A stretch of 63,150 nt of DNA from a virus (taxonomy: Duplodnaviria > Caudoviricetes): positions 1 to 63,150 of IMG/VR virus record IMGVR_UViG_3300049928_000025, one strand, 5' to 3'. This document shows, one piece after another, positions 5,962-59,215 of this stretch. Position 1 is the first letter of the stretch. Every line of letters begins with the position of its first letter. The position numbers and the translations under genes were made by a program. Below the pieces are notes generated by a model. It was given only the letters and a program-made list of their open reading frames with translations. It did not search any database and was not told where the DNA came from.

Positions 5962-6924
5962 ATGGCCGAGATCGTTCGCCACAAGAAGACCGGCGGCCTG
6001 TACGATGTGCTGTATCGGGGTGCTACGGTCGAGAGCAGCGTGCCCTTGGCGGATTACGCTGAGGTTATCATCTGCCGGCCCGTTTCGGATAGTGGGATCG
6101 TCATCCGACCCGCCAGACTTCCAGTGCCTACCAACCGTATCGCCCTGTACGGGGCCAGTGTCCAGACCGCCGTGCCACTCACCAACGGCGACGAGGTGGT
6201 GGTCTACCGCACCCAGGACGAAGATCTCCTCGTCTGGGTCCGCCCGACCTCCGAGATGGACGACGGGCGGTTCGAGCCCGCTAATCCCCTCGGCGCACCC
6301 CCTCATGCAAGCGCCTCCGAAATAGAGGAGCGTGCAGCTGTCGTTCGACGCGGGCTGTCGTCCGTGGCCAATCATGCACCGCCTGGCTCCACCACCGCGG
6401 TCTGGGCTGCGCGCGGCGTGGGCGTGATCGACGCTCTCCTCTCCCGTATCAGCCCCAGCCCGTTGGGGGATGCTGTAGGGCGCGGTCCTGCGGACCCGGG
6501 CTCTCGTGCAAGCATCGAGCCTGCTGGCGCAGTCTCGCCCGCCTCCGGTGGCGTCGATCCCTCGCGCGAAGCGTGGCTTGATTTTGAGCCGGATGAGATC
6601 GTTCGGCGCGTTCGCTGTCAGGCCGACGATGCGCCGGATGAAGGCGACAGCCCCGCCCAGATCTGGCGGCATGCCTGCGATACGATTTTGCTGCGCATGG
6701 GTAGGCACCCATCACAGGAGGCGGTGGCCAGCGGCGGCGAGGCGCCCGGCGGTGTGATCCCTGAGGGATGGGTTCTCGTGCCTCAGGAGCCGACTGAGGC
6801 GATGCTGGACGCCGCCGTGAAGGGTAGCGGTGCCGATGTCAGCTACGCCGATGTCGAGGAGCTGTGGCCCGCCATGCTCTCAGCCTCCCCGCGTCCCTCC
6901 CAGGGGGAGACGGGCGATGCGTAG
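5962..6924 (+). CDS. Mosaic protein: DUF1653-like N-terminus, in-frame L/R cassette, PEGWVLVP..PT..ML C-terminal module
   Basis: RHKKTGGLY...VVYR...WVRP..EM.DGRF; element at 6478-6568 is read through in frame. Confidence 0.7.
   Translation: MAEIVRHKKTGGLYDVLYRGATVESSVPLADYAEVIICRPVSDSGIVIRPARLPVPTNRIALYGASVQTAVPLTNGDEVVVYRTQDEDLLVWVRPTSEMDDGRFEPANPLGAPPHASASEIEERAAVVRRGLSSVANHAPPGSTTAVWAARGVGVIDALLSRISPSPLGDAVGRGPADPGSRASIEPAGAVSPASGGVDPSREAWLDFEPDEIVRRVRCQADDAPDEGDSPAQIWRHACDTILLRMGRHPSQEAVASGGEAPGGVIPEGWVLVPQEPTEAMLDAAVKGSGADVSYADVEELWPAMLSASPRPSQGETGDA
6478..6568 (-). repeat. Four-hairpin dispersed element, left copy L2
   Basis: GGGCGC-hp-CCGGGCT-hp-CGAGCC-hp-GTCTC-hp-GCGTCGATCCCTCGCGCG. 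Confidence 0.85.
6721..6747 (+). repeat. Truncated right element R2 (outer arm only)
   Basis: GCGGT-hp-GAGGCGCCC. Confidence 0.5.
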
Positions 6925-7171
6925 GCCGACAAAAGCCCAGCGAGCCGTGCTCGAATTCATGGGCGCACACCAAGATGCGCTTCGCTGCGACCCGCGCCTC
7001 CGGCCCGCATGGTGGCTGGAGGCGGGACCGACCGTCCGGGCTCAGGTCGCCGACAGCATCGTCGCCGCTGGGTGGTCCGAACGCACTGGCGAGGCCGGCC
7101 CACAGCAGTTCTTCACGCGGACGGAAGCCGGCCGCACCGCCCTCGCCAGAGAGGAGATGGGTTGTGAGTGA
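6917..7171 (+). CDS. Hypothetical protein, possible winged helix
   Basis: GGGGGAG RBS; coupled ORF. Confidence 0.6.
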   Translation: MRRPTKAQRAVLEFMGAHQDALRCDPRLRPAWWLEAGPTVRAQVADSIVAAGWSERTGEAGPQQFFTRTEAGRTALAREEMGCE

Positions 7172-7544
7172 ACGCCTGACCGAGTCGGAAATCGCAACGA
7201 TCGTAGATGTGCCCGACCATGCCGGGCGAGCCCTGCGACCCGAGAGCTACCCGCTCCTATCGGACTATGAGATGGACACGGTAATCCCGGCTAAGGACGG
7301 CCGTCCGTGGCGCAAGGCCTGCGCGGATTGCGCGTTCCGGAGCCACGACCCTCAAGGGTTCGGGCGCGGCTACCAGGACATGATCCGTTACTCGGATCCT
7401 CAACGGGATGGGCTGTTCTACTGCACGCACCGGACCGACGCGGGCGAGCACCGGATCTGTGCCTGCTACGCGGCCTGTCGGCATGGTGAGCACGGTAGTG
7501 GAGAGCGCGCCTCGCTCCAGCTCGAGGTTCCCGATGTGCTCTGA
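7164..7544 (+). CDS. Cys/His-rich hypothetical protein
   Basis: CADCAFR...FYCTH...CACY. Confidence 0.65.
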   Translation: MSERLTESEIATIVDVPDHAGRALRPESYPLLSDYEMDTVIPAKDGRPWRKACADCAFRSHDPQGFGRGYQDMIRYSDPQRDGLFYCTHRTDAGEHRICACYAACRHGEHGSGERASLQLEVPDVL

Positions 7545-49999: not shown

Positions 50000-52899
50000 C
50001 ACAGCACCTCGACGGTCATGACATTGCCGACGAGGCTTTTAACACGAAACCGCGACCCTCGGGGCAACAGAACCTCATGCTCCTTGGGGTAATGCGATGC
50101 GCCGCGGCCATTCATGACGTAGGCCGAATTGCCCTTGGGGAGCAGCATCTTGAGCACCACGCCTTCAGGGGTGGCAAACTTCTTGCTCGTGTCACCCTTC
50201 AGCGAAGTGCTGACGTAGCCGGGATCATCGATGGTGGACCCAACCTTCGCCGCCAGGATCTCTTTCGAGAACGGAGGCTTGATGCCCCGGTAGACGACGG
50301 TGTCCTCGGGAATGCGTGAGCGCGCGAGGACGTTGTCGATGTTGCTGATGTTCTGCCGCATCAGCGCCGTGGCGGGGTTCTTGCCGCGAAGGTGTCCGTT
50401 GATGCTGGAGTAGCCGGCGCCAGAGTAGACGCCTATGGACGTTTTTTCAGCCGTAGTTTCCGGCTTGGTGAGCATCGTCTTGTAAAGATCGCGCTCGACC
50501 TCGACCGTCGTGCGATGATCCGTGTCTGAGAAGTCGGAGAAGTTGTCTGCGTTGTACTTCTCGGATGCCGAGCCACCGGCGACCTTGAACCCGATGACGC
50601 CCTTCTGGTGATCCGCGGCCAGCTTCCGGAGCGCGTAGGCCTTGCCCTTGGGGTGGTTGTCGACGAAATCGCGGACCGTCTTAGCGCCAGCATAGGCCTT
50701 CACGCGCTTCGACAGGACGGCGATCTCGTCGTCATGGCTCACGCCAGCGGTCTTGAGCGCGGCGGCGCCCTTGGTCAGCTTCTCCTCACCCGCGGCGGAC
50801 TTGACCTTCGCCGCCGGCTTCGCGCTCCCTTTGGCGGCGGCCTTGCCCTTCGACGCCCATTTCCCGTCCGGTCCGCGGGGGTGCAGCAACTCGTTGAAGG
50901 CCGCCACGACGCCGCTCATTCGGCCGCCGGATGCCTTGTCGGACAGGCGGATGCCTTCCAGCATCTCAGTCCCGAAAAGCGCGCGGAGGTCGTCAGGCGT
51001 GACAGCTGCGATCTCGGCCTCAGTCGCCTCTTCCGGGTCCAGGGCGGCATCGCCCGTCAGCCCCGCCCGCCAGTCCTCATTGACCTGCTCGAAGATCTCC
51101 GGCCCGAACACGAGTGGACCGTTGTAGGCCGCCAGGGTGTCGACATCGACCTGGGGCGCATCCCAAGACAGCGTGACGTGCGGCTGGTACTCGGGATGAT
51201 CCCACGAGGCGCCGGACTCGCCGATCTCGCGATGCCGGTACTGCAGCGCGCCCGAGGCGAACGAGAGCACGAGCGCGTCACCGAAACGCTCCAGCAGCCT
51301 CGGGCCGCCGGCGTCGACCTTGAGCTCTGACCCCTGCCAGCTGTCGCCGACCTTCATCCAGTCGACGGGCTGCCGGCTGTAGGCGATCGTGACGTGCAGG
51401 GCCTCGGCCGGCATCAAGTTGGGGATGCCGGCGTCCCTGGCCCAGGCAAGCACGTCAGCGGCGTTCGTGAGCCTGCGGCTGACATAGAGCGTGCGCGGTG
51501 CGGCGTCGCTCACGGCCGCCCTGGAGCGGAAGGGAACGACGTTTGTGCCGGTGAAGCCCTCGGCCGGGTTGCCATCGGCGTCGAACTGGTCGGCGGCCGG
51601 GTCTGCCTCGGTCAGCGGCGCGTCACCATGCTCGTCATAGGCGGCGTCGATGCCGGGCAGGAGCCCGCTGTCGACGACGGCGCCCCGCACACCCCGCGCC
51701 AGGATCTCGAGCGGCGCCACCTTGGCCTCGGCCAGCGTCTTCACCGCTCCGGCGATGACGTTGAGCGCGTCCGCGTTTTCCTTGTGGCTCGTCTGGTAGA
51801 GCGGGTTCCAGCGATACCAGATCTCGGCCGGGCGGTCGCCGAGGGCATGCCGGATCAGCAGCTCGTCGAGGCGCGAGATGCGCGGCGTGAGGTCGACGTT
51901 CTGCTCCGCCGAGATGCGATCGTAGTACTGCCGGAAATCGCTATCGCCGGTGGCGTTCTGGCCGTCCGGGCTCTTGCCGAGCAACCGGGTCGCCGGGATA
52001 TCGGCGGCGCCGGCGGCGATCGACAGGTAGAGCCGGACCACGTCGGGCAGGCCGGCGAACGAGATCTGCTTCTGCTCGAACACCTCCCCGTCGGGGCTCT
52101 TGCCGTCGCCCTCGAGCAGCAGCATGCCGAACATGCTCTTCATCCGGGCCGCGTAGGCGAACCGGTCGGTGAGCGCCTTGGTGCCGGCCGCAGTGCTGAG
52201 ATGCTGCGACAGGCCTGGGACGCTGATCACGTCCTGCTTGGCCTCGGGCAGCATGGCGTTGACGTAGGCCGCCGAGGACGAGGCCTGGTCGACCGCGTCC
52301 ATCACCGCCTGAAGCACGCTGTCCCCCCAGCCGTCACCATCCAGGACCTCGTCGAGGATCGGGGCGCCCACGAGCCGGATCACCCGCGAGGGGTGGATGG
52401 TCTGCGCGCCGCGCGCCGAGCTCGTGATGGTGTACCCGGAGGGCTCGCCGAACCACTCGCTCGCTGGGTCGCGCTCGCGCTGGCCGGGGGTGATCTCCCG
52501 CCGCGACATCACGGCGATGTAGCGGATCCCGCCCTGCGGCATGCGCTCGGCGACGAGGGGCTGGGCTGGATCTGGCGAACCATCGCCAATCACCAAGGCG
52601 GCACCGCCATCGCGCCGGGCGAGCTTCAGCCCGTCGAGGAGCTTGCCGCGCAGGCGCAGGGCTTTCTCGGCCGCCTCGATCGCCTGGACCTCATCGTCTT
52701 TCGCCTGCCAAGCGCGCCACTCGCGCAGCATGTCGAAGGCAGGGACGTCCACGATCTTCCGCGCGATCCAATCTGTCCGGTAAGCGGCCTGGATCTGCGC
52801 CAGATCACGAAGCGCGAGGACGTGCAGGTTGCCGGTGGTCTTGTCCTTGGTGGTGCCGAGGCCGGAGACCAGATTGGCGAGGGTGTCGGCGAGCCACAT
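49999..52899 (-). CDS. Portal (DUF1073-type) fused to 2H phosphoesterase (Acb1-like) and VIP2-like ADP-ribosyltransferase
   Basis: Follows TerL; IPATRLLGKSP.G.NATG; HVTIAYS and YQPHVTL; YRG, YVSTS, EHEVLLPRG. Confidence 0.88.
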   Translation of the reverse strand: MWLADTLANLVSGLGTTKDKTTGNLHVLALRDLAQIQAAYRTDWIARKIVDVPAFDMLREWRAWQAKDDEVQAIEAAEKALRLRGKLLDGLKLARRDGGAALVIGDGSPDPAQPLVAERMPQGGIRYIAVMSRREITPGQRERDPASEWFGEPSGYTITSSARGAQTIHPSRVIRLVGAPILDEVLDGDGWGDSVLQAVMDAVDQASSSAAYVNAMLPEAKQDVISVPGLSQHLSTAAGTKALTDRFAYAARMKSMFGMLLLEGDGKSPDGEVFEQKQISFAGLPDVVRLYLSIAAGAADIPATRLLGKSPDGQNATGDSDFRQYYDRISAEQNVDLTPRISRLDELLIRHALGDRPAEIWYRWNPLYQTSHKENADALNVIAGAVKTLAEAKVAPLEILARGVRGAVVDSGLLPGIDAAYDEHGDAPLTEADPAADQFDADGNPAEGFTGTNVVPFRSRAAVSDAAPRTLYVSRRLTNAADVLAWARDAGIPNLMPAEALHVTIAYSRQPVDWMKVGDSWQGSELKVDAGGPRLLERFGDALVLSFASGALQYRHREIGESGASWDHPEYQPHVTLSWDAPQVDVDTLAAYNGPLVFGPEIFEQVNEDWRAGLTGDAALDPEEATEAEIAAVTPDDLRALFGTEMLEGIRLSDKASGGRMSGVVAAFNELLHPRGPDGKWASKGKAAAKGSAKPAAKVKSAAGEEKLTKGAAALKTAGVSHDDEIAVLSKRVKAYAGAKTVRDFVDNHPKGKAYALRKLAADHQKGVIGFKVAGGSASEKYNADNFSDFSDTDHRTTVEVERDLYKTMLTKPETTAEKTSIGVYSGAGYSSINGHLRGKNPATALMRQNISNIDNVLARSRIPEDTVVYRGIKPPFSKEILAAKVGSTIDDPGYVSTSLKGDTSKKFATPEGVVLKMLLPKGNSAYVMNGRGASHYPKEHEVLLPRGSRFRVKSLVGNVMTVEVL

Positions 52900-54368
52900 C
52901 AGGAGATGACACCCATCATGCCGTATCCGGGTTTGGCGACCTCACCGAACGCGCGGGACAGCGCATCGACCTGATCCTTGAAGGCGCCGTTCGGGAACGA
53001 CGACACCTCATCGAGGAAGGCATCGTTCCAGTCGCCCTGCACGAGCACGATGTTGCCGGCTTCTGCCTGAGCCGATACCGGTTCGGCGCGCTGGACCTTA
53101 TCGCCGCTCTCCGGCGTGGCGCGGGCCACGAACCCGTCGAGTGCCCGGATGAGGTACTGAGCCTGCATCTTTCCGGCTTGCCCAGGGTCTTGAGGCATGG
53201 AAACACGGCAGCCCTTGCCGTCCTGCTCCGCCGTGTTGACGATCATCCTTTCGACGCCGCCGGCCGAGAGCCGGTCGCGGCGGACATCGCCCACGTAGAG
53301 TCTGCCATCCGGCGCGCGTCCAAGCTTCACCCCGGCCGTGTAGGCGGGTTGCGATCCGCCCTTCGCTTCCGTCGCGGCCAAGTCCCAAGCCCGCACCCAT
53401 GTGCAGCCTGCCGGCGCGGCTCGAACGATCGGGAACCAGGACCGCTTGAACAGCCCGCCTTCTCGAGGCGCCGGCCGCTGCTGGAACTGCCCCGCCACCG
53501 CGTAGGAGCCGAGCGGGACCTTGTCGCGCTCCACCACCTCGCGGGGGAAGCGGGCGGGGAACAGCAGCTCGCCGTCCTCTGTCCGCGGATCGCGGAACCC
53601 GATGCTCGTCACGCACCGGCGGTCCGGCTCGAACTCCATCGGCAGCATCAGGTGCTCGTAGCCGAGGTTCTTCGCCAGGATCACGCCCGAAACGTCGCGC
53701 TCGTGCAGGCGCTGCATCACCACCACGATCGCGGAGTCCCGCGGGCTGTTCAGGCGGGTGGGAACCGACTCCAGGAACGTCGTCGTGACGCCGTTGCGTT
53801 CCGCCTCGCTCTCGGCGCTGTCGACCGAGTGCGGGTCGTCGATGATGACCCGGTCGCCGCGCGAGCCGGTCAGGCTCTTGAACGCCATCGCGTCTCTGAA
53901 CCCCGTCCTCGTATTCTCGAACTTGGTCTTGGCATTCTGGTCACCGGTGAGGGTGATCCGGTCGCCCCAGAGGGCCTGATACCAGTCGCTCTGGATCAGT
54001 CGCCTCGCCTTAAGGTTGTCGCGCACCGCGAGCGGGATGCTGTGCGAGGTCGCCACCACGCGGGTCGAGGGGCGGTTCCTCGGCCCCCATTCCCAGGCCG
54101 GCCAGAACACGCCGACGCACAGGCTCTTCATCGTGCCGGGCGGGACGTTGATCAGCAGGCGCGTAATCTGGCCGCTGGTGATAGCCTCCAGATGCTCGGC
54201 GATGGCGTCGATGTGCCAACCATGGACGTAGGGCGCTGCGGGCTCGATTACCGACCACGCGCGGCGGATGAAGCCCGCTAGGCTCTCCTCGCTGTCGAGA
54301 CGGTCAAGCTCGCGAAGGCCCGCGATTGGGTCCTTCAGCGCGACGCTCAAGGATTGCTCGAAGTGCAT
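52899..54368 (-). CDS. terL: Terminase large subunit
   Basis: PPGTMKS Walker A variant, IIDDP, MQRLH, WDLA, DQVDA. Confidence 0.95.
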   Translation of the reverse strand: MHFEQSLSVALKDPIAGLRELDRLDSEESLAGFIRRAWSVIEPAAPYVHGWHIDAIAEHLEAITSGQITRLLINVPPGTMKSLCVGVFWPAWEWGPRNRPSTRVVATSHSIPLAVRDNLKARRLIQSDWYQALWGDRITLTGDQNAKTKFENTRTGFRDAMAFKSLTGSRGDRVIIDDPHSVDSAESEAERNGVTTTFLESVPTRLNSPRDSAIVVVMQRLHERDVSGVILAKNLGYEHLMLPMEFEPDRRCVTSIGFRDPRTEDGELLFPARFPREVVERDKVPLGSYAVAGQFQQRPAPREGGLFKRSWFPIVRAAPAGCTWVRAWDLAATEAKGGSQPAYTAGVKLGRAPDGRLYVGDVRRDRLSAGGVERMIVNTAEQDGKGCRVSMPQDPGQAGKMQAQYLIRALDGFVARATPESGDKVQRAEPVSAQAEAGNIVLVQGDWNDAFLDEVSSFPNGAFKDQVDALSRAFGEVAKPGYGMMGVIS

Positions 54369-55065
54369 CGCGCTCGTCGGGGCTCATTCCGGTGAGGTCG
54401 GGGCGGCTCTCGGTCTGGATCGGCCCACCGCCGGGCCCTGAGTGCTCGACTTTGTCCCTGAACATGCCGAGGTGCTTGCCGAGCTTTTCGAGGGCGCCGA
54501 GCTTGTCGTGCAGCTTGAAGGCCAGGCCCTCTCGGGTCTGCTTGACCTCGGCGATGGCGGCGGCCGTGTCCTCGTCGATCTGGTCCGACGCGACCAGAGC
54601 CATCGGCGTATGGGCTCGAACGGCAATGACGCCATCCGCGCCGACCCGCCGTCGCTTGAGCGCTCCGCCACGAGGTTGAGGCTCCAACTCCTCCTCGACC
54701 TCGGCCTCGAAATCCTCTTCGATCCCCTTGCCGTCGGACCGGATGAAGTGATCGGCGACCTCCGGCGCGCACGGCACCATGACCGTCTCGCCCCACTTCA
54801 TCGCCTTGCGGATGTCGCTGAAGCCGATCTTGGCGAGCTCACGGACTACCCGCTCAACGGTTACGCCTGCGCGCTCGGCCCCTTCAGCAAGGATCTCGTC
54901 GACCCTGGCGCGGACCTTAGCATTTTTCAGCAACCGGCCCGCGTTGATGCCGACGCTCGCGCCCGTCGCCTCATATCCAGCGGCACGGTAGGCAGCCGTT
55001 GCGGACTGTCCCTTAGCCACTTCCTGCGCGAACCGCTCGTGACGGCTATTGTTCAGTGTCGGCAC
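54304..55065 (-). CDS. terS: Terminase small subunit
   Basis: HERFA..G.SAT.AY..AGY..RLL; KLHDK..ALEKLGKHLGMF. Confidence 0.92.
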   Translation of the reverse strand: MPTLNNSRHERFAQEVAKGQSATAAYRAAGYEATGASVGINAGRLLKNAKVRARVDEILAEGAERAGVTVERVVRELAKIGFSDIRKAMKWGETVMVPCAPEVADHFIRSDGKGIEEDFEAEVEEELEPQPRGGALKRRRVGADGVIAVRAHTPMALVASDQIDEDTAAAIAEVKQTREGLAFKLHDKLGALEKLGKHLGMFRDKVEHSGPGGGPIQTESRPDLTGMSPDERDALRAILERRAEGPNRGPSRA

Positions 55066-55723: not shown

Positions 55724-56074
55724 TCAATTCCCACCGCCATCCGACGACCCGCCATCCGAAGAGGACGAGCAGGAGAACGAGCCGCTATCGTAGCTCGAGC
55801 TGTAGGACGACGTGCTGTCGTGGCCGTGGCAGTGCGACGTGCTCGGGGCGGAGTGGCCGCCGTAGAGCGGAGAGGTGGGGCTGAGCGGGCTCAGGATCAT
55901 GCCGGAGGGCGATGCCGGGTTCATGGGGCTGTCGTCGTAGGCGGAGCGAGCCGAGCCGGCGCCGATGCTGCCGCCACCTGGGTATCGCTCGCGACGGCGG
56001 CGGGCAATCTCGTCGTCCTGAGCCTTGGCCGCCGCCTCAATCTCGCGACGCCTTTTGCCGAACCAGTCGAACAT
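55724..56074 (-). CDS. Ser/Gly-rich low-complexity protein
   Basis: GAGG RBS; SSYSSSYDSGS tail. Confidence 0.6.
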   Translation of the reverse strand: MFDWFGKRRREIEAAAKAQDDEIARRRRERYPGGGSIGAGSARSAYDDSPMNPASPSGMILSPLSPTSPLYGGHSAPSTSHCHGHDSTSSYSSSYDSGSFSCSSSSDGGSSDGGGN

Positions 56075-56087
56075 GTGAGCCTCACTG

Positions 56088-56339
56088 TCAGGCTGGCTCG
56101 GAGTACGAGAGCCGAACGCTGTAGACCGAACCGGGCTGTCCGGGCTCATTGCTGCCAGTACACGTCAGTCGATGGTCGGTGGCGTGTGGGCACCGTTTGT
56201 TGCCGCACTCGGTGCAGGCGTACATGTGGCCTGGGAAAAGCTCGGTGCTGCAGGCGCGGCAGCCGCAGCCAGGGCGAGGATCTGTTGCCGGCTGGCCCGG
56301 AGCCCGGGAAGCAAAATCGGATACCGAGATGACAGTCAT
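56088..56339 (-). CDS. Cys-rich small phage protein
   Basis: C.C..C..M..C.ECGNKRCPHATDH...CTGSNEPGQPGS. Confidence 0.65.
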   Translation of the reverse strand: MTVISVSDFASRAPGQPATDPRPGCGCRACSTELFPGHMYACTECGNKRCPHATDHRLTCTGSNEPGQPGSVYSVRLSYSEPA

Positions 56340-56369
56340 TCCAACGGCTCCGACGCCGGATTGGTGAAG

Positions 56370-57118
56370 GACAGCGGGGCGGTCGGGAGGCACGCTCCGA
56401 CTGCTAAAGGGCCACTGCCACCGTTACCGGAAGGCTCGCCCCGCTGTCTCGATGCGGGCCGGTCGCTACTCCGGCGATCCACGGCTACAGACGATCTAAA
56501 TGGGTATTGGCCGAAGCCGCAGGGCTCCTGATACCGTGGAAGTCCCAAGCCCTTTTTCCGCGTGGCTGCTTCCACGCTGCCGCATCGAAATCTAAACCAC
56601 GACTTCCATCAGGACCTCGCGTCGTGAGCAATTCCGCACGATTGCGGAAACGTTGTCCCTTGGTGCCGGGAGGGAGGAGGCATCCCCTCTGCGGTGTCCC
56701 GCCCCGGCTGAGACACTGTTCCGATGCGGGCCGAGGTCGCCCAGATGGGCCGGGAGCGCTGCTGGCTGCCGGCATGCCCTCGCATCTTCGCGCCGCCTGC
56801 GATGGCCCGCAGGCCCAGGACGGCGCCCGCATCGAACTCTATCGGTGTAGGCCGGGCTTGATACCGGCTTGCCCCAATCGGACCTCAGAGAGGGTGCCGG
56901 TCTACGAGGACTTCCCGCGGCGATTATCCAACTATCCCGCGTCAGGTGCGAAGCGGGATACCCCGCAGCCTGATCCGCTTGCCCGTCCTTCCAGGCTGCC
57001 ACACCGAACTGTACCGATGCGGACCGGCGGTCATCCCGATCGCGCCACCCAACCAACTACGGGGTAGCCTCGCACCGATCCTCTTTGCCCCGGCACGTCG
57101 TCGCTGCTCTGGGCGAAT
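56370..57118 (-). ncRNA. Putative array of structured RNA modules in the late-operon leader
   Basis: No credible ORF; consecutive modules each closed by a long-range terminal stem (56370-56448, 56449-56588, 56721-56835, 56842-57007, 57014-57078). Confidence 0.6.
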
Positions 57119-57247
57119 TTCGGACACAACAATCCCGTCGCCTCGGTGCTACCGTGGGCCGGGTCCTGCAAAAGCCAGACTGCCGAATGGCTATCGCTGC
57201 AAGCAGGGTGATCCTGGCGCAGGAGGTATGGCGGCGCGTTGATGTGG

Positions 57248-57937
57248 TCAAGCAGCTTCGACCTGTTTGCCGGAAAGATCAACAGTCGTTATGCGGCCGA
57301 ACAGGTTGATCCCGACGCTGATGCGCCCGGTCTTCGGGTCCGCATCCTCGACCGTGCCGCCATATGACACGAAGGGGCCATCGGTCACGCGCACCGCGAG
57401 GCCGATCAGGTCCAGCACGGTCTTGGCCTTCTCGACGTCATCGCCATGGCCGGTGATGCAGTCGGCGAAGCCCTGAAGCTCGCCGGCGGGGATCACAATC
57501 GGTCGGTGATCGCTGCCGCGCAACAGGCCGCCGCGGCGGTAGCCGGTCACATCGTCCAGCACGCCGGGGTGGCTCTCCACGAGCGCGAGATCCTGCCACC
57601 TCGAGATGCCGACGAAGAGCAGCCTGCGCAGGACCGGGACGTGAGCGGTCACCAATCGGTTCCGGAGGACGCGGTTGACGACCTCGCGCGCCTCGAAAAC
57701 CGGGATGCCGGCCTTGCGGATCTGCGCGGCAGCTCGAGCATCCCAGCGCGGGAGCGTGCGGACGACGTGCCAGGCGAGGCCCGTATTCACCTCGAAGCGC
57801 TCAGCAGGCTCCACAGGGGCGCGGAGATGCGCGAGGCTCGACGAGTGCTGATGCGTCGCTACGGCCCGCCGAACAGCCTTGTGGCGGGCTTGCTGGGCCT
57901 TGGCGCGGCGCTGAGCCCTGCGCTGCTTCTTCGTCAT
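57248..57937 (-). CDS. NusG-family antiterminator (NGN + KOW)
   Basis: WHVVRT..A..I...GI..F; VRVTDGPF..Y.G.V..INLFGR.T.V.L. Confidence 0.88.
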   Translation of the reverse strand: MTKKQRRAQRRAKAQQARHKAVRRAVATHQHSSSLAHLRAPVEPAERFEVNTGLAWHVVRTLPRWDARAAAQIRKAGIPVFEAREVVNRVLRNRLVTAHVPVLRRLLFVGISRWQDLALVESHPGVLDDVTGYRRGGLLRGSDHRPIVIPAGELQGFADCITGHGDDVEKAKTVLDLIGLAVRVTDGPFVSYGGTVEDADPKTGRISVGINLFGRITTVDLSGKQVEAA

Positions 57938-58207: not shown

Positions 58208-58525
58208 TCAGGCTTCCATCGCCCGACGGATGCGCGCCTCATCGGCCACCAACGGGTTGCGGCCCCACCGCCACCGGCGAAGGGCCACCGATCGCCAGAC
58301 GGCCGGCGTGGTCAGGAAGTGCAGCACACCGCGCCCCGTCAGGCTCTGCATGCCGCCGGAGCGGACGGCGTAGCCGTTGGCGACGAGGTGATCCCGGGAG
58401 GACTTGCTGGCGAGGTTGCCGTCCCAGACCATGCCGCAGGCGAACAGCTGCATGGCCACATCGAGGTCACCGTTGTTCCAGCCGTTCGAAGCGCGCGGCT
58501 CGCGGCGGATCATGCGCTCGGCCAT
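58208..58525 (-). CDS. Hypothetical protein
   Basis: Coupled to MucR-like gene; WDGNL.SK..RD.LV..GY. Confidence 0.65.
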   Translation of the reverse strand: MAERMIRREPRASNGWNNGDLDVAMQLFACGMVWDGNLASKSSRDHLVANGYAVRSGGMQSLTGRGVLHFLTTPAVWRSVALRRWRWGRNPLVADEARIRRAMEA

Positions 58526-58965
58526 CACGCCACTGCCCGCAGCTTGCGCCGGCTCTGCCCCAGTCCGATCGACTTCGCCAGCTCGCTCCGCTGCGCCGCG
58601 TAGTTGGCCGCGACCATCGGGTAGTCGACGGGCAGGCCCCACTTCGCCCGGTACTGCTCCGGGGTCAGCCCGCGGCCGGCGAGGTGGCGCTTCAGGGTCT
58701 TGTAGGGCTTCCCGTCCTCGAGGCTGACGATGTGGTCGGAGGTCACGGTCTTGCGGATCGAAATGGGCGGGGTCAGCGGCTCGGCGGCGGGTGCAGCCGG
58801 AGCGCCGAGGCCGACCAGCGCGCCGTGCACCGAGGCGATCAGCCCGGGCAGGTCGGCGGCCGGGACAGCGTTGCGCTGGACATAGGCCGAGACGATCGCG
58901 GCCGTGTAGCCGAGCAGCAGGGGCTGGCTGGAGTCGACGGCGAGGGTGATCTTGTGGTCGTTCAT
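58525..58965 (-). CDS. Ros/MucR family regulator
   Basis: TA.IVSAYV..N..SLEDGKPYKTLKRHL..YRAKWGLP.DYPMVA.NY...RS.LA..IGLG. Confidence 0.95.
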   Translation of the reverse strand: MNDHKITLAVDSSQPLLLGYTAAIVSAYVQRNAVPAADLPGLIASVHGALVGLGAPAAPAAEPLTPPISIRKTVTSDHIVSLEDGKPYKTLKRHLAGRGLTPEQYRAKWGLPVDYPMVAANYAAQRSELAKSIGLGQSRRKLRAVA

Positions 58966-58987: not shown

Positions 58988-59215
58988 TCAGCGAGTGACG
59001 TGCTTGACCGCCCACATCACCGCCTGCTCGGCGTTGTTGATTGCGAGGCTGATTTCGCGACTAGCTCCGGCCTTCTGGCACTCAGCGATAAAGGCGGCGC
59101 CGAGGTCCTTGATCCGGACCATCTGCTCCTTCTCGGCGTCGCTCAGGACGCGGTACTGGTGGCGCACGGCGTTGTTCGCGGTGCGGTCGTTAGATTGGCT
59201 GTCGACGTAGGACAT
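58988..59215 (-). CDS. Acb2/Tad1-like hairpin sponge protein
   Basis: YRVLSD.E...M..IK.LG; SRE.SLA..N.EQAVMWAVK. Confidence 0.7.
   Translation of the reverse strand: MSYVDSQSNDRTANNAVRHQYRVLSDAEKEQMVRIKDLGAAFIAECQKAGASREISLAINNAEQAVMWAVKHVTR

Follow-up and report, generated by a model that had tools for sequence, protein, structure and literature searches.

The window analysed in this work is a virus record of 63,150 bp from IMG/VR (IMGVR_UViG_3300049928_000025). Between the gene of a NusG/KOW-like transcription antiterminator and the late genes terS and terL, it carries a stretch of approximately 900 nt (56340-57247) that has no coding signal and contains a tandem array of stem-closed RNA modules, here called M0 to M4 (Table 1). 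Around this array, every credible gene is located on the minus strand. The difference in GC content between codon positions is at most 0.12 over approximately 56190-57090, compared to 0.35-0.52 in the flanking genes, and a Pfam search of the long open reading frames (ORFs) overlapping the array gave no match. A preliminary description, made from the letters of the DNA, had reported about 750 bp without a credible ORF, tiled by modules whose ends pair. Its non-coding nature was borne out by the codon statistics and the Pfam search, in which a conserved protein-coding signal was looked for and not found, but its extent had been underestimated.

Table 1. Features of the array and its surroundings in the window, in the direction of the minus strand
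Feature	Position	Strand	Remarks
Acb2/Tad1-hairpin-domain protein gene	58988-59215	-	E-value 3e-17; just upstream of the antiterminator gene
MucR/Ros regulator gene	58525-58965	-	E-value 4e-45; just upstream of the antiterminator gene
NusG/KOW-like transcription antiterminator gene	57248-57937	-	phrog_6386 'transcription antiterminator', E-value 3.5e-20; weak Pfam KOW match
Invariant late-leader block GGACCCGGCCCACGGYAKCACCGAGGCGA	57134-57166	-	predicted small hairpin; upstream of the array and outside it
Array leader segment	57083-57130	-	common only to array-bearing relatives
M4	57012-57082	-	about 70 nt; 9-bp closing helix with two G.U pairs; two internal hairpins
M3	56841-57010	-	about 170 nt; closing helix UCGGUGUGG/CUACACCGA
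M2	56720-56836	-	117 nt; 12-bp closing helix; homolog not found
Segment S, unwrapped	56591-56719	-	C-rich CCUCCUCCCUCC run and 7-bp hairpin
M1	56449-56592	-	144 nt; 9-11-bp closing helix, 5' hairpin, family core, 3' hairpin with UAGCG-containing loop
M1 core	56473-56560	-	88-nt pseudoknotted family member; model R1 102.4 bits, E-value 8e-21
M0	56370-56448	-	79 nt; perfect 12-bp closing helix; three small internal hairpins; folding z-score -3.2
Cys-rich 83-aa zinc-ribbon-like ORF	56088-56339	-	first ORF downstream of the array; 44 relatives in viral contigs
terS	54304-55065	-	
terL	52899-54368	-	

Five modules with pairing ends tile the region 56370-57082, and the five inverted repeat pairs described earlier are all present at the coordinates claimed. 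These are a perfect pair of 12 bp at 56370-56381/56437-56448 (M0), a pair of 9 bp at 56449-56457/56580-56588 (M1), a pair of 10 bp at 56722-56731/56825-56834, which reads on the minus strand as 12 bp including one G.U (M2), and the pairs at 56842/57007 (M3) and 57015/57077 (M4), each of which is a 9-bp minus-strand helix when G.U is allowed. For M4, the automated helix choice picked another helix of equal score. As had been noticed from the DNA, four modules have a common closing stem and abut or lie close together: on the minus strand they share the 5' end UUCGRUGYGG, the 3' end CCRCAYCGR and the linker NASAGU (direct-repeat families D1 and D2; alignment A1), with linkers of 0-6 nt. The tiling holds for the five stem-closed modules, but 129 nt (56591-56719, segment S) lie outside any such closing stem.

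Perfect inverted repeats of at least 9 bp, with arms 30-200 nt apart, occur 127 times in the window or 2.0 times per kb, and single stems are therefore unexceptional. The motif CGRTGYGG is found six times within 570 bp at the array, versus 34 times in the other 62.5 kb. Chance does not account for the stem sequence that modules share, for their tiling, for the compensatory changes or for the fact that whole modules are conserved in other genomes.

The preliminary description placed the modules on the plus strand, whereas they are RNAs of the minus strand. Counted over 20 modules, taken from the window and its relatives, the closing helices contain, on the minus strand, 203 Watson-Crick pairs, 11 G.U pairs and 6 mismatches, 2 of which are A.C, although these modules are partly interrelated and the pair counts are not independent. 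In the window modules, the imperfect positions of the closing helices are all G.U on the minus strand and would be A.C mismatches on the plus strand. The covariance model R1, built for the core of M1 as described below, matches the window on the minus strand only, and helix 3 of this family retains a G.U pair in 18 of the 23 sequences. In addition, the minimum free energy of M4 is -31.5 kcal/mol on the minus strand versus -21.4 kcal/mol on the plus strand. The minus strand also carries the flanking genes.

Given that the module arms have a common sequence, pairing is also conceivable between the 3' arm of one module and the 5' arm of its successor. Such junction hairpins were rejected for two reasons. 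Firstly, the M3-to-M2 junction contains two mismatches, whereas the helix of M3 itself is compensated: relative to M1 and M2, both of its arms have changed, turning A-U into G-C and C-G into U-A. Secondly, some arms in the arrays of two Methylobacterium genomes (G141 and G127) have no junction partner. Module c of G127 is closed by the fully compensated helix UUCGACGACGG/CCGUCGUCGAA, and the M1-type closing helix covaries between contigs, being GAUGCAG/CUGCAUC in L173 and CAAUGCGG/CCGCAUUG in L160. The GC-rich members of the M1-core family have their core wrapped by a helix of the GAUGCGG/CCGCAUC type, as in the window. Taken together, these comparisons indicate that the closing helix is a real pairing. 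In M1, M3 and M4, a hairpin with a stem of 5-6 bp lies directly against the 3' strand of this helix, and several of the loops contain UAGCG.

Single copies in the Methylobacterium genomes G012 and G064 share 87-89% identity with the interior of M1, and one inner helix has three different, fully compensated sequences in M1, G012 and G064. Members of the family were collected through an exact match to 20 nt of the most conserved part, a pattern that yielded 12 viral contigs and 25 metagenome contigs. Model R1 was then built and 33 sources were searched, giving 30 matches, 23 of them distinct, with E-values of 6.5e-12 or lower. From 5' to 3', the members consist of GAAAAAGGGYU, a variable helix of 7 bp, CAGG, ARCCC, a GGC/GCC hairpin, AAUACCCAUUYAGAUCG, UCUG and the 3' strand of the helix, with GGGYU pairing with ARCCC to form a pseudoknot. 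Across the 23 distinct sequences, 98.2% of the pairing cells hold a pair, versus 74.9% in shuffled alignments, none of the 500 shuffles reaching the observed value and slid registers pairing in 32-49% of the cells; as the alignment was fitted to R1, these statistics call for some caution. All seven pairs of the variable (outer) helix covary, with four or five pair types each, as do three of the five pseudoknot pairs. Covariation is seen in the M1-core family as well as in the closing helices.

The M1 core of the window matches the full model on the minus strand (56473-56560). It is the only R1 copy in the window, so M0, M2, M3 and M4 are different RNAs that share only the wrapper. No Rfam family matches the M1-core family, even at E-values up to 10. 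Blastn finds members in four Vibrio phages of approximately 190-196 kb and in a 50.6-kb metagenome-derived phage record, and in these five records no GenBank annotation lies beneath the copies. R1 matches 2 of the 146 Methylobacterium genomes, with a single copy in each, and the core is therefore not a housekeeping RNA of the host. The ORFs that follow 25 family members are mutually unrelated, by which a role of the M1 core as cis-leader of one gene family was rejected. A topology like that of the hepatitis delta virus (HDV) ribozyme was compared by eye and does not fit the order of the helices. The literature searched describes neither the motif nor its sequence string, although a catalogue of 10,006 candidate viral RNAs (PMC10690425), which was available in part, may contain it. 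The M1 core belongs to a widespread family of phage RNAs that is apparently undescribed, in the sense that neither Rfam 15 nor these literature searches yielded it.

Whole modules were likewise encountered in other genomes. In a DNA search, pieces of the array were found in 5 of the 146 Methylobacterium genomes, always at a single locus. In a related prophage of the cultured Methylobacterium G141 (locus L154), a leader piece is followed by genes for tRNA-Pro, -Thr, -Gln and -Met (1599-1955; ARAGORN and Rfam agree), after which a homolog of M3 starts at L154 1956, 0-3 nt past tRNA-Met. This homolog is 173 nt long and 95% identical. Further downstream there are wrapped modules of 140 and approximately 282 nt, closed by UCGGUGUGGG/CCCACACCGA and a 16-bp helix, and upstream of the locus there is a NusG-like gene, identified by eye only. 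G145 has a leader piece and then two wrapped modules, and G127 carries three wrapped modules and then a homolog of a 141-aa ORF of the window. The leader piece of the window (57119->57081) matches that of G141 (90%) and that of G145 (85%), in both cases directly upstream of the first tRNA or module. Segment S has 35 nt that are 94% identical to an inter-module piece of the G127 array (L152 1500-1540). Its C-rich run (56655-56700, minus strand) is complementary to Shine–Dalgarno-like sequences and recalls the CcsR/cuckoo RNAs, with no Rfam match at this position.

A metagenome contig (L175) presents a homolog of M0, an M1 module, a tRNA-Tyr gene 2-3 nt later and a relative of the 141-aa ORF. 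Here M1 is complete and matches over 144 nt with 94.4% identity, and M0 matches over 75 nt with 85% identity and has one closing pair that is G.U on the minus strand, while the order of M0 and M1 is swapped compared to the window. The limits of the BLAST matches are the module ends (M3, 57010->56838; M1, 56592->56449; M0, 56446->56372). Because matches stop at module boundaries and the order is swapped, the modules can be said to act as units exchanged between phages, and they are physically interspersed with tRNA genes. Other searches for relatives remained empty or at chance level. Blastn of 56300-57250 against phage GenBank records gave no match, a pattern search for M3 found only L208, which is the viral-contig copy of the G141 locus, the 11 matches of the M0 pattern AGCAGTCGGAGCGTGC show no similarity beyond the pattern, and the 5 matches of the pattern CTGTNYCGATGCGGRCCG in viral contigs are all within coding sequence.

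The core of M1 was also found in the places of tRNA genes. In L180 it lies 12 nt after tRNA-Arg and 6 nt before tRNA-Leu, and in L162 it lies 6 nt after a tRNA. Similar tRNA-sized slots on the same strand are occupied in L161, L174/L176, L181 and L175. Two side observations concern these loci. In L161 (4884-4961) and L162 (1697-1773), two unrelated tRNA-rich phages, the tRNA just before the core carries a CTA anticodon; it is tRNA-Pyl according to ARAGORN and may be an amber suppressor. In addition, 0.4 kb upstream of its core, L162, a viral contig of 203 kb, encodes a GOLLD RNA (926-1388; 193 bits) that has a tRNA embedded in it.

The modules themselves are not tRNAs. ARAGORN finds no tRNA gene in the whole window, and the tRNA model RF00005 has no match there at gathering score, nor at E-values up to 10 over 55900-57500, whereas the same tools do detect tRNAs in G141, L161, L162 and L180. 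Searching all of Rfam 15 gave no match in the window at gathering score and, at E-values up to 10, two chance-level matches, both outside the array; around the relatives (L162 1690-1900 and L154 1300-2800) it gave only tRNAs and weak noise. On these grounds, tRNAs as well as any family in Rfam 15, including ribozymes, riboswitches, Y RNA, cuckoo/CcsR, drum, ROOL and GOLLD, were rejected as the identity of the modules.

The closest known analogue are rnaC (species 1, 139 nt) and rnaD (species 2, 119 nt) of phage T4, two non-tRNA RNAs in a tRNA cluster. These RNAs are cut out together with the tRNAs, and their function is not known to have been explained. In T4, tRNA-Arg, rnaD and rnaC follow one another closely, with 1 and 6 nt between them, like the tight spacing of the array, and the fold of rnaC, with paired 5' and 3' ends and a T-arm hairpin stacked on the 3' strand, has the layout of M1, M3 and M4. 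The window differs in that it has no tRNA, carries five or six RNAs in a row and uses one shared sequence for the closing stems. With filters off, R1 has no match on rnaC or rnaD in the T4 tRNA region, its best score being 15 bits within a coding region. The T4 RNAs are analogues by layout, not homologs.

Phage tRNA arrays in general resemble the locus as well. In lambdoid phages, tRNA genes follow the late antiterminator and precede the late genes. The array takes the same position, and its tight tandem spacing, its co-orientation and, in relatives, its mixing with tRNAs are further likenesses. The modules differ from tRNAs by their size of 70-170 nt and by closing helices of 9-12 bp instead of 7 bp. 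GOLLD and ROOL are phage-borne structured RNAs that accompany tRNA genes, and in L162 GOLLD, a tRNA and the family core are found within 1 kb, but these are single RNAs of 400-800 nt rather than several small independent folds. Bacterial Y RNAs (YrlA) are stem-closed, modular, sometimes arranged in tandem and have tRNA-like features; their model does not match in the window at E-values up to 10, however, and elsewhere weakly matches real tRNAs only.

The best explanation for these observations is that the locus comprises five or six separate genes for small structured RNAs other than tRNAs, which are clustered, expressed as one minus-strand transcript and processed. This reading is considered probable, and on comparative grounds the array appears to be the non-tRNA counterpart of a phage tRNA island. 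The transcription unit would be the late transcript running from behind the NusG-like gene into the zinc-ribbon, terS and terL genes, which is plausible as no terminator-like site interrupts it: on the minus strand from 56340 to 57250, no GC-rich hairpin followed by a U tract was found, and this also led to the rejection of an array of intrinsic terminators or attenuators. The phage antiterminator would keep RNA polymerase going across the long untranslated stretch. Each RNA would be a wrapped cassette in which a 9-12-bp helix of its own ends encloses a cargo fold of about 50-150 nt, and in several modules a short hairpin may stack on the 3' strand as the T-arm does on the acceptor stem of a tRNA. 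The precursor would be cut at the short linkers by host enzymes that process tRNAs or stable RNAs. For modules flanked by tRNAs these may be RNase P and 3' trimming enzymes, and elsewhere possibly RNase P acting on the minihelix-like wrapper, or RNase III or RNase E. Cutting would release stable RNAs acting in trans. Our best guess is that the cargos are accessory RNAs tied to tRNA biology or host defence, which is reasonable given the link with tRNA islands and the nearby Acb2/Tad1-like gene. The earlier suggestion of a tRNA-operon-like polycistronic precursor thus gains likelihood from the genome comparisons (G141, L175 and the placement of the M1 core in tRNA slots), except that the modules themselves are not tRNAs.

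Several points weigh against this explanation. Within approximately 150 nt of the core, a tRNA was found in 7 of the 32 loci scanned, 6 of them distinct since L174 and L176 represent the same array, and although many loci without a nearby tRNA are short contigs, some are longer ones. Several modules fold no better than shuffled sequence (z-scores of -1.3 for M2, +0.2 for the M3 interior and -1.2 for M4). No homolog of M2 or M4 was found in the genomes and contigs searched, M3 has one at a single prophage locus (G141 and its viral-contig copy L208) and M0 has one, so that the internal folds of these modules are based on energy alone. For the M1 core, the exact 20-nt pattern used for collection makes the invariance of that stretch partly a matter of construction. 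Finally, the two pieces of the array in soil metatranscriptomes cross module boundaries: a contig from run X10 (56411-56549) bridges the M1/M0 junction, and a contig from run X8 (56810-56960) extends 29 nt into M2.

Words of the stretch occur in 23 public sequencing runs, four of which were compared (X8, X10, X7 and X5). The DNA runs contain fragments identical to the window, and the exact pieces are identical to it as well, except for one C>A in a contig of low depth. They therefore provide no variants for covariation. The pieces from RNA libraries are single contigs with a depth of 2-5, from runs selected with this very stretch and possibly containing carried-over DNA, in which strand, ends and expression level cannot be read, and the parts of the stretch that they leave uncovered are uninformative. 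Contigs spanning junctions are compatible with a precursor as well as with DNA carry-over.

A farther-reaching version of the cluster of RNA genes, which we regard as possible but doubtful, is that alphaproteobacterial phages carry exchangeable RNA cassettes, for which the helix of the GAUGCGG/CCGCAUC type and the UAGCG-loop hairpin serve as a common handling signal. The wrapper might then present RNase P with a mimic of the acceptor/T-arm minihelix of a tRNA, or a phage protein might recognise it, so that one late transcript could express, release and stabilise very different functional RNAs. The M1 core, a highly conserved pseudoknot which occupies tRNA slots from GC-rich soil prophages to AT-rich phages of 200 kb, would be a new catalytic or decoy RNA. 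It may cleave itself, take part in tRNA processing or serve as a bait for host defences that target tRNAs. Species 1 and 2 of T4 would belong to the same functional class, namely RNAs that accompany tRNAs in their islands.

Alternatively, the whole 0.9 kb could be one cis-acting leader of the late operon, involved in loading or retaining the NusG-like antiterminator, in blocking Rho or in the timing of late translation, without discrete RNAs. Such a leader is suggested by the location of the stretch between the antiterminator gene and the late genes, by the lack of an internal terminator and by the two RNA-library contigs, both of which cross module junctions. Moreover, the loop UAGCA of the leader hairpin resembles, by eye only, the UAGCG loops of several module hairpins. 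The comparison with related prophages argues otherwise. Upstream of the array there is a separate, invariant leader block of 29 nt. Its identity is 90-94% in L046-L048, the closest terL relatives (72% identity), as well as in 15 of 17 prophage loci of Methylobacterium, where the neighbouring antiterminator protein is only about 45% identical. Eighteen relatives (among them L047, at 2490-2660) have the same layout, consisting of the NusG-like gene, a promoter-like sequence TTGACG-N17-TACAAG/TATCAA, a leader of approximately 110 nt, the block GGACCCGGCCCACGGYAKCACCGAGGCGA and terS. Their promoter-like boxes were read by eye, and the scan rule rejects these -10 boxes. The leader hairpins show some covariation, with one pair being G-C in 8 and A-U in 6 sequences. 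In these 18 relatives the array is absent and the leader runs directly into terS. The array, together with the small ORFs that follow it, has therefore been inserted past this conserved late leader, at the place behind the late promoter where tRNA genes and morons are found in lambdoid phages.

Thus, phages with the same antiterminator family and the same leader do without the array, M1 occurs behind unrelated genes and in tRNA arrays of unrelated phages, the ORFs after 25 family members are not homologous and the module order varies between phages. A cis-acting leader of this kind is accordingly judged unlikely. For the same reasons (the relatives without the array, the unrelated contexts of the modules and the separate leader upstream), the alternative offered in the preliminary description, namely a large antitermination leader for the NusG paralog, was abandoned. 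It is rather the conserved block near the NusG-like gene that is a candidate recruitment site for this paralog. By analogy, the general scheme of RfaH/ops, lambda Q/qut and HK022 put would fit the NusG-like gene with the leader hairpin at 57134-57166, and not the array. The window sequence CGGUAGC resembles the ops core, and relatives carry CGGCAUC there.

Some further observations concern this leader region. In the window, a possible promoter TTGACC-N17-TACCTC, read by eye, overlaps the stop codon of the NusG-like gene (57104-57251 region, minus strand). L047 (2690-2800), L134 and L141 have a palindromic insertion of approximately 100 nt (GAGCACTTCGCGATTGC...GCAATCGCGAAGTGCTC) between the leader and terS, which looks like a host repeat element. 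The closest relative of the NusG-like protein (54% identity; L131, a Methylobacterium genome, in the region 6700-7500) has neither the leader block nor terL nearby. Downstream of its NusG-like gene lies a low-GC stretch without coding signal.

The modules could also be elements that act at the DNA level, such as miniature inverted-repeat transposable elements (MITEs), repetitive extragenic palindromic (REP)-like mobile elements, recombination cassettes or arrays of binding sites for a phage protein. Their ends do resemble terminal inverted repeats, whole modules move between genomes with matches that stop at the boundaries, and the shared ends are direct repeats at which recombination could shuffle cassettes. 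On the other hand, wobble pairing favours one strand (11 G.U versus 2 A.C), the covariation of the M1 cargo, including the pseudoknot, is strand-specific, and the compensatory changes in M3 are not expected for half-sites bound by a protein. Nor are the modules multi-copy in hosts: array pieces occur in 5 and R1 matches in 2 of the 146 Methylobacterium genomes, as single copies, and a junction pattern had 3 matches in 401 genomes of the host family versus 3 control matches. A DNA-level role is therefore regarded as quite improbable, and a MITE/REP-like host repeat was rejected on the single locus in each of those five genomes and the control-level junction pattern. Type III toxin-antitoxin RNA of the ToxI kind and CRISPR were dismissed as well, since the units measure 70-170 nt and have unrelated interiors with only the ends shared; no ToxN or Cas domain was found in the neighbouring ORFs scanned. 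Lastly, that the tiling is a functionless chance product of a GC-rich non-coding spacer, as the frequency of inverted repeats of at least 9 bp (2.0 per kb) and the unremarkable z-scores of several modules might suggest, is hardly credible and already contradicted by the comparative data, as M1, M3 and M0 are kept as whole units of 85-95% identity in differing surroundings and the M1 family covaries.

The genes around the cluster of putative RNA genes give some additional context. The host of the phage is Methylobacterium; a relative of its NusG-like protein is encoded at 17 genome loci, all of them in this genus. With the NusG-like protein as sole query, no relative was found in viral contigs. 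Its ORF is open from 58090, and Met52 is the likely start, as the alignment with three relatives (A2) begins there. Acb2/Tad1-type proteins are sponges against cyclic-nucleotide defence signalling. On the other side, two further small ORFs lie between the zinc-ribbon side of the array and terS. Among the relatives of the zinc-ribbon ORF, one (L016 4001-4222) is located between tRNA-Phe and tRNA-Trp within an array of 26 tRNAs (L016 1169-6079), and co-oriented tRNAs accompany the match in 6 of the 30 loci scanned. None of the 44 loci with such a relative has DNA similarity to the array or a match to R1.

Large gene-free gaps in prophages usually stay unannotated, and the one described here resolves into defined, putative RNA genes. 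One outcome is a covariance model of a phage RNA family that is widespread and unmatched in Rfam 15. The association of non-tRNA RNAs with tRNA islands in many unrelated phages suggests that the cargo of these islands is broader than tRNAs. This idea dates back to the species 1 and 2 RNAs of T4. Should these RNAs act on tRNA biology or on host defence, phage counter-defence would gain an RNA layer. The shared wrapper would be a natural portable signal for the tandem expression of structured RNAs. The conserved leader and the phage NusG paralog may represent a separate case, namely late-gene antitermination in alphaproteobacterial phages.

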